A stretch of 64,000 bases of DNA from Nitrososphaerales archaeon (GTDB lineage: Archaea; Thermoproteota; Nitrososphaeria; Nitrososphaerales; UBA213), in assembly GCA_965197925.1 (NCBI GenBank), contig CBDAOC010000018.1, positions 239,346 through 303,345 of the forward strand. Reading direction: 5' to 3'. The notes beneath the pieces were generated by a model, which had not been told where the DNA came from, did not search any database, and saw only the letters and a list, made by a program, of their open reading frames with translations. The translations under genes and the position numbers were made by a program. Within the stretch, counting starts at the first letter, position 1. The number at the start of each line of letters is the position of its first letter. This document shows positions 17,465-49,543 of this stretch, one piece after another.

Positions 17465-17722
17465 AGTAGTTGGGTAACATAATAGACAAGAATTTAAATC
17501 ATATTCCGATTCATCATGTATTAGTCAAGTAATCCTGCTCTATATTTCGTACATAAGGGAAAAGATATGTAATGTTTGCCGTTCAAATTGAGAAACTAAA
17601 TCCAAAATTGAGCGTATTTTTTAACATAATTTTGAACATTATTGGTTTGAGTTTGTGATAATCACTACATCAGCATCTGGTCGAGGTCAACAACAATAAT
17701 TTCAATAATTTGAACGTGAGAA

Positions 17723-17798
17723 TGGGGTCGGTGGGATTTGAACCCACGATCACCAGCGCCCCGGGCTGGTATCTTTGACCAAGCTAGACAACGACCCC
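17723..17798 (-). tRNA. tRNA-Pro (anticodon GGG), no intron, CCA not encoded
   Basis: Hand-folded cloverleaf: GGGGUCG/CGACCCC acceptor, GUGGG-UUCAAAU-CCCAC T-arm, anticodon arm CCAGC-CCGGGGC-GCUGG. Position 33 reads C rather than U. Confidence 0.8.
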
Positions 17799-18374
17799 AT
17801 GAGGGTCTTGATCATGTTTTTGGGTTATTTATTTCAGCAAGATTACCTAATCATTAGACAATATTTCAACTCATTTCCAGTGATTTATACAGCTCTTAAT
17901 TTCCACTTTTGCTCTCGCCAGGGTTAGTAGAAATTAGAAGTGCTTAATTACTCCCAAATCTGTTGCATTTATAGAATCCAGTCCTAGATAGGTTTTCTAA
18001 CTATTGTATGTATTGTAAAACCAATGGTGACAATCCCGTTATGAATTTTCACCTAGATTACAAGCTTCAGAAAAATACACTATATAGTTTGGTGATGAAA
18101 CCCTTAGAGATTGTAAACATGAATCTACCTATAAAAAAAAAGATTATTGTGAAGACATTATCAAACAAGTTATTCTTTATGATACTCTCGACAAAAATTG
18201 TAGCAAAAAATTGCAATGTATTAGGCTAAAGATCGATTTATTAAGAAAACGAGAGGAACAAGATTTTAGCACTGAATTTAATTATATGCGCTCAATTCTT
18301 TAGATACCCTTTAAGTTTTCCGTTTTATTATAACTTACTATAAAAAGAAGAAAATATAGGGCCCATTAAAAGGC

Positions 18375-30364: not shown

Positions 30365-30514
30365 TGGTGGGGCCGGCCGGAATTGAACCGGCGACCTACG
30401 GGTCACTGCAGCTCCAGAACATACATCATCCTTTCGTCAGATGACCCATTTATGTCTAGCTTCTGGAGCCCTTAGCGGTACTACTGTCGCCCTGCCATGC
30501 TAGGCTACGACCCC
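30365..30514 (-). tRNA. tRNA-Trp (CCA) with two introns; 3' CCA encoded
   Basis: Hand-folded: GGGGUCG/CGGCCCC acceptor, GCCGG-UUCAAUU-CCGGC T-arm. 14-nt intron at 30472..30485 in the 5' anticodon-stem strand. 59-nt intron at 30404..30462 at the canonical 37/38 site. The mature loop is CUCCAGA and the mature length is 77 nt. Confidence 0.85.
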
Positions 30515-43887: not shown

Positions 43888-44302
43888 TTAACCCTTTACC
43901 CTTACTACCATGGTTCTATCAAGCACCTTCCAGTATTCTACTTCTACTCCTTGTTGTATCTTGGGCTTTGCATTTTCATCAATTGCTTTGGTATCAAAGA
44001 CCTCGAAGGTTTCAAGATCCATGATCTGTAAGTTATCATCTGTCATTGCTATAATCTGCCCATTTCTCTTATCTATGAGAGGAGTCTCTACATTAGAATC
44101 TACGGGAGAAACAAGGCTTCTTCTAGTGCCATCAAACACACCTATGCCAACAACCCTTGCCTTTGCAGAACCATGCTATCTGGGCAGTTCAATACTGCAT
44201 TCCAGGCTTGCTTTTATCATAGGATACGATCCTGCAGGGCTCTTCATCAATTAGTATGTAAGATCCTTCCTTCAAACTTCCAAGATCTACTGGCTTACTC
44301 AT
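43888..44302 (-). CDS. eif5a: Translation initiation factor 5A, interrupted by a 22-nt insert (exon 1 at 44200..44302, exon 2 at 43888..44177)
   Basis: Joining the two exons gives a 393-nt ORF: [55 protein letters not shown]...VRVKG, with the hypusination motif. Unspliced, the frame stops at TGA after KPGMQY. Confidence 0.85.
44178..44199 (-). other. Candidate bulge-helix-bulge intron in the aIF5A pre-mRNA
   Basis: RNA ...CUGG AAU GCAGU AUUGA ACUGC CCAG AUA GC.... Central 4-bp helix, two 3-nt bulges, inner 5-bp helix. Cleavage after nt 2 of each bulge removes exactly 22 nt. Confidence 0.65.
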
Positions 44303-44985
44303 ATTATTCACAAACATAGTTGTGATATTTAACATTTACACATTTAGAAATATCCATACTTTGAAGAACTCTTAAGTGATTCCAAATCAAGATATACATC
44401 GCACTGTTTCCCTTTAGTATATATGAAATCTAATTAAGAAATCTATCTTCTAATTTTGCTTTTCCGCATTATGGAAGTCATTCATATTATTCACTACTTT
44501 CTCCATAAGGCTTTGAGTTACATAAAAGACAAAGAAACACTAAACAATTTTTACTCTGGCTCGTATATAAAGAATTCATTCTTAGAATGTATTGCAAGTT
44601 CTGTATTCCGCATAACTTCGCGTATCAAACTTCTATTCTTCTGATTGTTTGTAGTTGACACAGATATACCAACAGCCCTTACACCTTGATATATTCTTGC
44701 CCAAGCCGGTATGGAGGACATTTCCTTATTCCTATGCTAATAATTCCCAGCATTCCCTATGACGAGTATCAAGTTTTCAATGACTCCAATCTCTAGATAT
44801 GAAACATTTTTTTCATATCCTGGTGAGGTTAAAGGACTCGTAAATTGACCACTAAAGATTCTGATTAGAGGATAATGTTACTACAAAGCCACAATCCAAG
44901 AGAATTACCGCAGAAAGCATCATCACCCAACTTGATTTAATACCAATATTCAATATGAATACATATGTAGATAATGTTAATATTT

Positions 44986-45357
44986 TTATTCCTTAAGTTC
45001 TGAGAGAACAGAAAAACTTACTAGATTGTTAATGCTTATTCCCTTCCTTAGGATTTCCTTAAGGGTCCTTTCGCAGTACTTTCTATCACTTCTATGGCTT
45101 TTCTCGCTTTCTAACTCCAGTAGTACAATATCTTTTAAATAAGGAAATCTGAATTTTAAAGAGGGTTCAGATATTACCCCCATTTCCGTCAATGAAGCAG
45201 TTCTCAATCTTTCTCTCTTTCGTAAAAATACATATTCCATTTCATCAAGAGTATCCTGATCGTATGACTGTTTGATGAAATATATAGATAGATAATTCAA
45301 TTTAGCCAACACTGGCGTCTGAAATAACAACTTCTTTTTGAAAAATACAAATGACAT
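44986..45357 (-). CDS. Hypothetical protein
   Basis: 123-aa ORF, 15 nt downstream of 45373..45600 on the same strand. No family recognised. Confidence 0.3.
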   Translation of the reverse strand: MSFVFFKKKLLFQTPVLAKLNYLSIYFIKQSYDQDTLDEMEYVFLRKRERLRTASLTEMGVISEPSLKFRFPYLKDIVLLELESEKSHRSDRKYCERTLKEILRKGISINNLVSFSVLSELKE

Positions 45358-45372
45358 TTTATCTCCAGCATA

Positions 45373-45600
45373 TTAATTAAGTTCCTTTTTTACATATTCA
45401 AAATCCGAAAAAGATGCTAGCAAGTAGTAATTTGAGTAATTTGGAAAGTAAGATTTACCCTCAAGAGAGAACGTAGCCGTTGCAGAATATATTTCCTGTA
45501 TATTATTAGATTCTTTCCAGATGTGCTCCAATGTTTTATAATCGATATTATTAGAATTTGGTACGCAAATATATCCCCACATTATTGTCCATCTATACAA
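45373..45600 (-). CDS. Hypothetical protein
   Basis: 75-aa ORF, no family recognised. Confidence 0.3.
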   Translation of the reverse strand: MYRWTIMWGYICVPNSNNIDYKTLEHIWKESNNIQEIYSATATFSLEGKSYFPNYSNYYLLASFSDFEYVKKELN

Positions 45601-45683
45601 TGCTATTCTAAATATAATAACCTTAGATTATATTTTTTTCAATGTAGGAACCCGAAGAGATTTAAAACGAGTAAATTACGTAT

Positions 45684-45721
45684 AATTTACCTTATATGGT
45701 TAAATTTACCTTATATGGTTA
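45684..45721. repeat. Tandem repeat 2 x 19 bp (aatttaccttatatggtta) overlapping an 8-bp-arm palindrome
   Basis: Read directly. Palindrome gtaaatta-cgta-taatttac at 45671-45690. Lies 70-120 nt upstream of the 45373..45600 ORF. Confidence 0.85.
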
Positions 45722-45949
45722 AAAATTCAAGATATAATGTTAATCCTATTGAGTATCATTTATAGCTTTAGTACATTTAAGATTTTCCAAGCAATTAGCA
45801 CGTTTGTTAAACTTTGTAGTTGATGTTTGATTTCAGTTAGCAATTTAATCTAATACAAAGTAACACAGTTTGGTTTAAGAAAATCCATCCCTTCGTCGTG
45901 TCGAATTATTACCATATTATAGCAGTTATCCAAACCCTTTTGGATTTAT

Positions 45950-46380
45950 TGCAATGAACATGTTGAATATGGATGCTTTTAGCATGTCCCTGTTTGCTAC
46001 CTTTATGCCAGAGGAATCTGCAGTTATTACAATAACATCCTCCATAATTGATGGATCTATCTAGATGTCCATCTTCGCTACTCTCCATACTATGTTTGTG
46101 AAGTGAGGTGCATTCAGTCCCTTTACATGTTTACTTACTTCACCCTTGTGAATCCTTCTAACTGCCTGTATGGTAGCAGGTAAGCATGTACAACAGAAAG
46201 CATCGCTAGGAATGATTCTGGATACAGGAATGGCGTGCCTACCTTACCTTCATTCATTCTTACAAGCTCATCAGGCCATGAATTTATGAAATCCATATCA
46301 AAAAGTATCACTCCTCTCCTTACCAGGGCTTCATTGCAATCCTTCCAGTTCCATTCAGGTATGAATCTCAATGATAACAA
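45950..46380 (-). pseudogene. Remnant of an IS5-family (IS903-like) transposase gene
   Basis: 46135..46380 encodes WKDCNEALVRRG...GTPFLYPESF...LPYRQLEGF, an IS5/IS903-type N-terminus. Downstream a shifted frame with a stop reads ...VIVITADSSGIKVANR and then the similarity ends. No terminal repeats identified. Confidence 0.55.
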
Positions 46381-46448
46381 GTGATCAAAATTTCATTCCA
46401 TCTAATATTCACGATCTTCTAGTTGATGATTCGACACAGCAAATAGTT

Positions 46449-47732: not shown

Positions 47733-47874
47733 CCCGTGGTAGCTCAGCCTGGTAGAAGTTACTATCTGCCGAAAGCTTCCGGCTGTAGTGGTTGGCTTAT
47801 AGCCGATCGGTCTCAGCGTACACAGGCTAACAGATACCGGACCGTCGCAGGTTCAATTCCTGCCCACGGGACCA
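47733..47874 (+). tRNA. tRNA-Tyr (GUA) with two introns; 3' CCA encoded
   Basis: C1-G72 acceptor CCCGUGG/CCACGGG, as expected for archaeal tRNA-Tyr. 18-nt intron at 47756..47773 in the D-arm (about 22/23). 47-nt intron at 47789..47835 at 37/38, with a perfect CUGU/ACAG central helix and bulges AGU and AUA. Mature loop is CUGUAGA. Confidence 0.88.
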
Positions 47875-49432: not shown

Positions 49433-49543
49433 GCGGTCGTCGTCTAGATAGTCAGTCGATAATGTATCGACTGATTAGGATAAATTGGTCTAGGACGCTG
49501 GCCTTCCAAGCCCGCGACGCGGGTTCAAATCCCGCCGACCGCA
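49433..49543 (+). tRNA. tRNA-Gly (UCC) with a 36-nt D-loop intron; CCA not encoded
   Basis: GCGGUCG/CGACCGC acceptor, GCGGG-UUCAAAU-CCCGC T-arm, loop CUUCCAA. Intron at 49448..49483 (about 15/16) has central helix GUCU/GGAU, bulges AGA and AAA, and a 12-bp inner helix. The anticodon stem carries a U28-C42 mismatch. Confidence 0.82.

Follow-up and report, generated by a model that had tools for sequence, protein, structure and literature searches.

Watanabe in 2002 and Yoshinari in 2006 are said to have described a bulge-helix-bulge (BHB) intron in the pre-mRNA of crenarchaeal cbf5, the gene for a pseudouridine synthase. Introns of this kind are present in the cbf5 genes of Desulfurococcales and Sulfolobales, where their splicing has been confirmed; Nitrosopumilus and Cenarchaeum have been scored as being without a cbf5 intron, and unconfirmed predictions of mRNA introns exist for Sulfolobus and for a rudivirus (Yokobori 2009, PMC2738675). 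In a 2020 study of the substrates of the splicing endonuclease EndA, cbf5 is the only other mRNA example beside the Haloferax volcanii HVO_1309 mRNA, which carries in its 5' untranslated region (UTR) a BHB intron that is an EndA substrate and has to be removed for efficient expression; no archaeal pathway other than EndA together with RtcB is known to remove such inserts (PMC7714728). Here we describe a candidate for a further case, located on the minus strand of a 64,000-nucleotide stretch of DNA (the window, in what follows) from a Nitrososphaerales archaeon (contig CBDAOC010000018.1, positions 239,346 to 303,345). The window's gene for archaeal initiation factor 5A (aIF5A) is split by a 22-nucleotide insert and, judged from the sequence and its relatives, this insert is very probably a BHB pre-mRNA intron that lies in the codon of the hypusine lysine and is removed by the splicing endonuclease and RtcB.

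The locus is laid out as follows.

44326..44332, minus strand: the heptamer TTAAATA, resembling a TATA box, 24-30 nucleotides upstream of the ATG, as read from the sequence
44200..44302, minus strand: aIF5A exon 1, from the ATG (44302-44300) to the A at 44200 with which the hypusine-lysine codon begins
44178..44199, minus strand: the putative 22-nucleotide BHB intron, UGCAGUAUUGAACUGCCCAGAU, whose deletion repairs the open reading frame (ORF)
43888..44177, minus strand: aIF5A exon 2, comprising the AG of the Lys codon, HGSAKARVV...VRVKG and the stop codon TAA (43890-43888)

Exon 1 encodes 34 amino acids plus the A of AAG; residues 3-34 of this fragment match the Pfam family IF5A-like_N, and the related proteins begin at the same MSKP. 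Exon 2 matches the Pfam eIF-5a OB fold. Deletion of exactly 44199..44178 joins GGA A to AG CAU and produces a 393-nucleotide ORF that encodes 130 amino acids and includes the motif SKPGKHGSAKA. The junction is in phase 1 and separates the A from the AG of an AAG codon; the Lys encoded there stands immediately before His-Gly, and we take it, from established knowledge of the eIF5A family, to be the site of hypusination. All of this agrees with the original prediction, which had placed the insert, the restored frame and the junction within the Lys codon at these positions. That prediction had also described the exon 1 frame as running into a TGA; the stop codon is there, but three further codons (MQY) precede it. 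The unspliced frame thus reads ...SKPG-MQY-stop and yields only a 37-amino-acid N-terminal stub, so the expectation that the unspliced factor would be truncated before its modified residue holds. The heptamer TTAAATA is found at an equal distance from the ATG in three homologous loci (L049, L057 and L068), a position that suggests a leaderless or short-leader transcript and backs 44302 as the start.

The protein that would be made from the joined exons scores above the cut-offs for Pfam IF5A-like_N (PF21485), EFP_N (PF08207) and eIF-5a (PF01287). It has the N-terminal SH3-like domain, the C-terminal OB fold and the hypusine loop (S/T)KxGKHGxAK by which aIF5A and eIF5A proteins are recognized. 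Its residues 3-130 align to Pyrobaculum aerophilum aIF5A (PDB 1BKB) with an E value of 4e-41 and without a gap at the junction. The comparison to Pyrococcus aIF5A (PDB 1IZ6) gives an E value of 1e-39, and GKHGSAKAR is identical in the PDB comparison.

The RNA around the insert contains the following elements.

44202..44205, minus strand: CUGG, the exon half (H) of the central 4-base-pair helix, made up of the third base of the Pro codon CCU and the GG of the Gly codon; pairs with 44180-44183
44199..44201, minus strand: the 5' three-nucleotide bulge AAU, with the predicted cut between 44200 and 44199
44184..44198, minus strand: the inner hairpin, GCAGU (44198-44194), loop AUUGA (44193-44189) and ACUGC (44188-44184), from the minimum free energy (MFE) fold
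44180..44183, minus strand: CCAG, the intron half (H') of the central helix, from the MFE fold
44177..44179, minus strand: the 3' three-nucleotide bulge AUA, with the predicted cut between 44178 and 44177
44175..44176, minus strand: GC, the 3' strand of the outer helix, pairing with GC at 44207-44206; weak, with 2 base pairs followed by 1x1 mismatches

The unconstrained MFE fold of 44160-44225 on the minus strand consists of the outer GC/GC pairs, the central helix CUGG/CCAG, the bulges AAU and AUA, and the hairpin GCAGU(AUUGA)ACUGC, and is identical to the near-canonical BHB motif that had been proposed for this RNA. Two 3-nucleotide bulges lie on opposite strands with a 4-base-pair helix between them, the arrangement that defines a BHB element, and helices are present on both flanks as in the hBHBh' form, the inner one having 5 base pairs and the outer one being weak. 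Cutting after the second base of each bulge creates the sole junction that gives both SKPGKHGSAKA and the 130-amino-acid ORF; in-silico deletion confirmed that these cuts restore the frame, as the original prediction had claimed. A loose BHB finder returned dozens of chance matches per 150 nucleotides, and a strict version was used instead. Of the strict BHB candidates in the window, only the aIF5A motif links two separate ORFs; the others are located inside intact ORFs.

We examined related loci in two ways. The best 80 GTDB loci were ranked by tblastn score, a ranking that penalizes split genes, and metagenomes were scanned with a pattern in which the flanking codons were fixed (Ser as AGC, Lys as A before and AG after the insert) and an insert of 12-42 nucleotides was left unspecified; given these restrictions, the reported distribution is a lower bound. 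An uninterrupted aIF5A is found in 77 of the 80 GTDB loci, from Nitrososphaeraceae, Nitrosocosmicus and similar archaea (~72% identity). The other three, L049, L057 and L068, carry inserts of 21, 30 and 30 nucleotides, respectively, at the exact aIF5A site. The metagenome scan added 46 contigs from ~33 datasets with an insert at this exact site, for a total of 41 distinct inserts of 19-36 nucleotides across 4 named genomes and the 46 metagenome contigs. Each of the 41 fits the same plan of a 4-nucleotide H, a 3-nucleotide bulge, a closed hairpin of 4-11 base pairs, a 4-nucleotide H' and a 3-nucleotide bulge, and every complete insert-bearing locus yields an intact aIF5A upon in-silico splicing.

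The hosts of these inserts are Nitrososphaeria and Bathyarchaeia-like archaea, whose aIF5A proteins share no more than 50-55% identity; overall, the proteins fall into several clades with 50-75% mutual identity. The window's own clade has an aIF5A-dph-SRP54 synteny that is common to the loci L049 and L129, and the SRP54 proteins of the window and L049 are ~80% identical. Among the other clades, one has introns of 30-36 nucleotides and two are singletons with 27-nucleotide introns. A GC-rich family, group B, has introns of 26 or 29 nucleotides; among named organisms, Candidatus Bathyarchaeia are closest to it. In the window's wider group, the aIF5A fragments that carry organism names come from metagenome-assembled genomes (MAGs) labelled Nitrososphaerales and Candidatus Nitrosocaldaceae.

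Syntenic Bathyarchaeia-like relatives without the intron (~78% nucleotide identity) read ...CCCGGCAAGCAYGG... across the site, which is equal to the predicted ligation product; in these relatives aIF5A lies between NAD kinase, encoded on the opposite strand, and deoxyhypusine synthase. Since intron-less syntenic relatives exist within this family, the intron has been gained or lost between related lineages, a pattern already demonstrated for cbf5. Five full-length group B proteins (P0129 and P0134-P0137) were considered as evidence of splicing and rejected as such: they are encoded on genomic contigs with genes on both strands, so they represent intron-less lineages. At the nucleotide level they are ~78-85% identical to intron-bearing loci.

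Covariation was assessed in an alignment of 31 distinct sequences. RNAalifold, unguided, reproduces the central and inner helices together with the two bulges, with compensatory double changes at 6 of the 11 pairs. Under an explicit hBHBh' model, 92.7% of the cells are standard pairs, compared to 22-34% in controls whose partners were slid by 1-3 columns; 51 double-sided changes are counted in the model, as opposed to 0-9 in these controls. The covariation score of 0.359 compares to at most 0.072 in the slid controls and was reached by 0 of 500 shuffles, the sequences being phylogenetically related to one another such that the shuffle and cell counts overstate significance and the number of independent events; the slid-partner control is unaffected by this kinship. 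In 11 of the 31 sequences, U44204-A44181 is replaced by a covarying C-G pair, and 5 of the 6 aligned pairs of the inner helix show double-sided compensatory changes. In the outer helix, the C-G pair is invariant (31/31) and the second pair is retained in 24 of 31. Thus, the presence of the insert and the covariation of its inner and central helices in related loci, proposed as a check when the intron was first suggested, are both borne out across the 41 distinct variants.

The coding sequence follows the intron as well. In intron-bearing genes, the Pro codon CCU always occurs with the H' sequence CCAG (23/23) and CCC always with ACGG (18/18), whereas all four Pro codons are used in 75 intron-less genes (CCT in 26, CCA in 26, CCG in 12 and CCC in 11). 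Judged from these codon counts, the synonymous third base of the exon Pro codon is frozen to match the intron. The inserts themselves keep no common phase, since lengths of 0, 1 and 2 modulo 3 are found in 9, 12 and 20 distinct variants, respectively, and 40 of the 41 contain a stop codon in the read-through frame. The ratio of nonsynonymous to synonymous substitution (dN/dS) between the window's gene and its intron-bearing relatives is 0.035-0.074, with dS saturated, which indicates that the spliced ORF, as predicted, is under strong purifying selection.

Introns with the same geometry occur in tRNA genes of the same window, in which four tRNA genes were found.

47733-47874, plus strand: tRNA-Tyr(GUA), with a canonical 37/38 intron at 47789-47835 (47 nucleotides)
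49433-49543, plus strand: tRNA-Gly(UCC), with a 36-nucleotide D-loop intron at 49448-49483, a non-canonical position
30365-30514, minus strand: a tRNA-like gene of 150 nucleotides with a good acceptor stem and T-arm and a type-II-like variable arm, GACC-CGUA-GGUC
17722-17799: tRNA-Pro(GGG), the sole uninterrupted tRNA gene of the four

With the cuts marked by a slash, the tRNA-Tyr intron reads UCCGG-CUGU-AG/U...ACAG-AU/A-CCGGA; it lies 3.5 kb from aIF5A, and both introns end in ...CAG-AU/A. The tRNA-Gly intron reads GUCU-AG/A...GGAU-AA/A, with an inner helix of 12 base pairs and no adjacent outer helix (HBh' type). Removal of the inserts leaves a 7-nucleotide anticodon loop and a tRNA-Tyr call in the one case and a clean tRNA-Gly cloverleaf in the other. 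The original prediction that these two tRNA introns share the geometry of the aIF5A element, namely an H of 4 base pairs, 3-nucleotide bulges and cuts after the second base, is therefore upheld. Introns interrupt three of the window's four tRNA genes, at a non-canonical site in one of them, so the host must have a splicing endonuclease. Default ARAGORN, and Rfam at the gathering threshold, found one tRNA and missed the three that contain introns; the Rfam tRNA model misses the tRNA-Tyr gene entirely. Combining single deletions with ARAGORN proved too permissive for defining intron boundaries, and these were set by means of the homologous tRNA in L049.

Some further features of these tRNA genes were observed. 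The tRNA-Tyr gene has a second insert of ~17 nucleotides in the D-arm (~47757-47773) that contains CUGCCGA, which mimics an anticodon loop, and because of this resemblance ARAGORN, run in intron mode, calls the gene Gly(GCC). The homologous tRNA in L049 also bears an intron, and ARAGORN mis-calls that copy as Ser. The tRNA-like gene at 30365-30514 on the minus strand has an insert of ~63-74 nucleotides with a 9-base-pair helix, GCUCCAGAA/UUCUGGAGC; the ARAGORN call of Gln(CUG) is doubtful for this gene, as it does not fit the long variable arm.

The product of the joined exons was searched against 5.8 billion protein clusters, a search space that includes the window's own gene calls. The best full-length match is only 74% identical (Nitrososphaeraceae). 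With exon 2 as the query, all matches with at least 73% identity are fragments of 83-119 amino acids that are without the N-domain, and all full-length matches are at most 71% identical. An intact second aIF5A, which the original prediction had named as an outcome that would speak against it, is not recorded for the window's clade among these clusters. NCBI and JGI name the C-terminal fragments of 83-119 amino acids (P0322, P0323, P0312 and others) "translation initiation factor IF-5A" and do not flag the truncation, and gene callers annotate the split locus as an ORF of 42-48 amino acids and one of 83 amino acids.

Several results weigh against an intron at this site. The folding z-score of the locus is only -1.0, and, taken by itself, the motif is as frequent as expected by chance (about one per 2 kb); strict sites consisting of a BHB and a hairpin number 59 in the window, compared to 69 ± 7 in dinucleotide shuffles. 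Given that strict BHB sites are not enriched in the window, we dropped motif rarity as an argument. The outer helix is weak, with 2 base pairs, and MFE predictions for the relatives shift with flank length, for which reason covariation counts were preferred as evidence of conservation; these counts in turn carry the inflation from kinship described above. In group B, the central helix CCGG/ACGG has three pairs and a terminal G.A, and in 17 of 18 cases the MFE fold pairs the first intron U with the A of this G.A, a 3-base-pair register in which the bulge is displaced by one base and which would mis-splice. Only the canonical register gives an in-frame product in that family, and the group B introns are relaxed BHBs, like many cbf5 introns. 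When protein databases were searched for spliced products, none identical was found for the window's clade, and no spliced transcript turned up in databases. Finally, the EndA and RtcB genes were not found within the 64-kb window. What sets the element apart from chance is that its two cut sites coincide with the one pair of positions by which both frame and motif are restored, together with the comparative data.

If the insert is a BHB intron, its removal would proceed by known steps. In the pre-mRNA, the exon sequence CUGG, part of the Pro-Gly codons, can pair with the intron sequence CCAG to form a canonical hBHBh' motif. EndA, presumably of the (alpha-beta)2 type, would cleave after the second base of each bulge, and RtcB would ligate ...CCUGGAA to AGCAUGG..., creating the AAG codon and an uninterrupted 130-amino-acid ORF. 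The 22-nucleotide intron would be released and probably circularized, and synthesis of aIF5A would hence depend upon the tRNA-splicing machinery. An (alpha-beta)2 EndA that accepts relaxed and non-tRNA substrates has been reported for Thaumarchaeota/TACK archaea (PMC5829648, PMC4090602).

Of the alternatives to this pathway, the one that fares best retains excision at the level of RNA and assigns it to a mechanism other than EndA and RtcB, be it another structure-specific nuclease with a ligase or a self-cleaving and self-ligating activity. The departure of the group B variants from the canonical BHB leaves some room for this idea, as does the fact that EndA cleavage at aIF5A is a prediction. 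The window's element, however, is a textbook BHB with the geometry of the tRNA introns in the same genome, and 22 nucleotides are far too few for a group I or group II intron, so we consider a different excision mechanism unlikely. Group I and group II introns have a ribozyme core of hundreds of nucleotides; self-splicing by an intron of either class was rejected on the size of the insert, and no Rfam model matches the locus at the gathering threshold or with E <= 0.5.

Three explanations that do without RNA excision are each less likely still. In translational recoding, the ribosome would cross the insert by a bypass, such as the hop on T4 gene 60, or by a +1 or -1 frameshift. Programmed bypass of the T4 gene 60 type uses matched take-off and landing codons, and the coding sequence is complete without any joining of RNA. 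The stop codon and hairpin that come soon after the GGA codon superficially resemble the gene 60 take-off site, but the 3' end of the insert offers no GGN codon as a matching landing site, and the AAG Lys codon is absent from the unspliced RNA, being made only when A is joined to AG. Moreover, the insert lengths occupy all three phases (the 9, 12 and 20 variants noted above), so no single frameshift rule fits the homologues, and recoding does not predict selection for base-pairing of exon sequence with the intron's 3' end. On these grounds recoding is very unlikely. We judge it equally improbable that the locus is a pseudogene or a decaying copy with an intact aIF5A elsewhere in the genome. 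The window covers 64 kb of a genome of ~2.6 Mb, which favors such a reading to that extent; against it stand the low dN/dS, the lack of other frameshifts or stop codons in more than 40 variants, the structural selection on the insert and the search of the 5.8 billion clusters, in which no full-length aIF5A exceeds 74% identity. There is likewise very little chance that the two ORFs are translated separately into fragments that assemble non-covalently, as the annotations of gene callers would have it. The break would fall in the hypusine loop, and neither ORF encodes the Lys or the 12-amino-acid segment that follows it, since the first start codon of exon 2 is the GTG at 44139, 12 codons past the junction. 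Neither a conserved start codon nor a ribosome-binding site can be discerned, and a split protein would leave the covariation unexplained.

That the 22-nucleotide insertion is an artefact of sequencing or assembly, a condition under which the original prediction would have fallen, has a vanishingly small probability, as the locus and its insert recur without any difference in four assemblies made independently from different samples, among them a 2.63-Mb contig at 88x (ENA ERZ25072076 ctg245904) and a short-read Logan assembly, and homologous inserts are present in ~50 other contigs.

One conceivable history starts from one ancient gain of the intron, before Nitrososphaeria and Bathyarchaeia diverged, after which several lineages would have kept it for well over 1 billion years as a checkpoint, the Lys codon coming into existence only when EndA and RtcB capacity is available and the spliced ratio following growth or stress in the manner of HAC1/XBP1. 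We regard this scenario as doubtful. If it were true, the capacity to translate polyproline-type stalling motifs would be tied to tRNA-splicing capacity.

In the window's clade, a Dph6-like diphthamide-synthase gene (PF01902; 42316-42999, minus strand) adjoins aIF5A and is followed by SRP54, so that a gene for modification of aEF2 adjoins the gene of the hypusine-bearing factor. Directly after aIF5A, the Bathyarchaeia-like family has the deoxyhypusine synthase gene (PF01916; 1861-2787 in L132). Upstream of aIF5A in the window is a gene-poor stretch of ~2 kb (~44400-46400) that contains short ORFs only, and at ~46135-46380 on the minus strand there is a weak precomputed match to the DDE transposase fragment PF13737 (gene tables of L081 and L082); the stretch may be a decayed mobile element. 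In the group B loci (L085-L128), an in-frame ATG is missing from the vicinity of the conserved N-terminus (…E-x-x-LS[KR]PVDVG…), and gene callers either stretch the aIF5A ORF far upstream (153-164 amino acids) or truncate it. The true start in group B may be a non-ATG codon at the Leu.

Should the aIF5A intron prove genuine, aIF5A would be the second known protein-coding gene family that needs BHB splicing, after more than 20 years of cbf5 alone, and the splicing of mRNA by the tRNA machinery would be neither a crenarchaeal oddity nor a matter of a single gene. The host gene encodes a universally essential translation factor, and the putative intron is conserved, with covariation, in two archaeal classes that include relatives of ammonia oxidizers and the Bathyarchaeia that are abundant in sediments. 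If the transcript is spliced, the dependence would be absolute, as the codon of the residue that defines aIF5A would exist only after RNA ligation. A 22-nucleotide intron with a defined junction would also make a clean system for the study of archaeal mRNA splicing, of intron gain and loss, and of a possible coupling between tRNA processing and elongation. In practical terms, the split gene escapes notice in a large number of MAGs and is mis-modelled wherever it is used as a marker, so that alignments of marker genes may suffer from it.

In full-text literature, a body in which most subscription journals lie outside the searchable scope, we found nothing relevant on aIF5A or initiation factor 5A in combination with an intron or a bulge-helix-bulge, in agreement with the earlier statement that no aIF5A intron has been described. 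The closest known case is that of cbf5. As in cbf5, a short, protein-free intron bounded by a BHB would lie within the coding sequence of an essential RNA or translation gene, its presence and absence are lineage-specific with inferred losses, and gene callers see a frameshifted or split gene. The cbf5 intron is removed by the hetero-oligomeric tRNA-splicing endonuclease, and removal from aIF5A is predicted to occur likewise. The two cases differ in the host gene and in the lineages, which are Nitrososphaeria and Bathyarchaeia-like archaea here and Desulfurococcales and Sulfolobales for cbf5. They also differ in that cbf5 motifs are often of a relaxed form and the window's motif is canonical throughout, and in that the aIF5A insert splits the codon of a modified residue. 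The splicing of cbf5 has been confirmed experimentally, whereas that of aIF5A is predicted from sequence. The HVO_1309 intron, from a euryarchaeal mRNA, is unlike the aIF5A insert in that it belongs to the untranslated leader and leaves the reading frame uninterrupted.

The BHB introns of archaeal pre-tRNAs have the identical architecture and the identical predicted cut positions, and their size range of 11-175 nucleotides (PMC2738675) includes the 22 nucleotides of the aIF5A intron. The differences from pre-tRNA introns are that the host is an mRNA, that the outer helix consists of two pairs of coding sequence and not of the anticodon stem, and that the exon half of the central helix is constrained by the Pro-Gly codons. 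A more distant parallel is provided by HAC1/XBP1, in which a small, spliceosome-independent intron (26 nucleotides in XBP1) is cut out by IRE1 and the exons are sealed by a tRNA ligase, which is RtcB in metazoa. There, as proposed here, removal of the intron changes the reading frame and switches on a functional protein, an analogy of logic and not homology; in HAC1/XBP1, the endonuclease is IRE1, the recognition motif consists of twin 7-nucleotide loops, and splicing is regulated by stress. Compared to these systems, the proposed machinery and the motif are the same as those already known, the host gene and the lineages are new, and the position in the codon of the modified lysine is striking.

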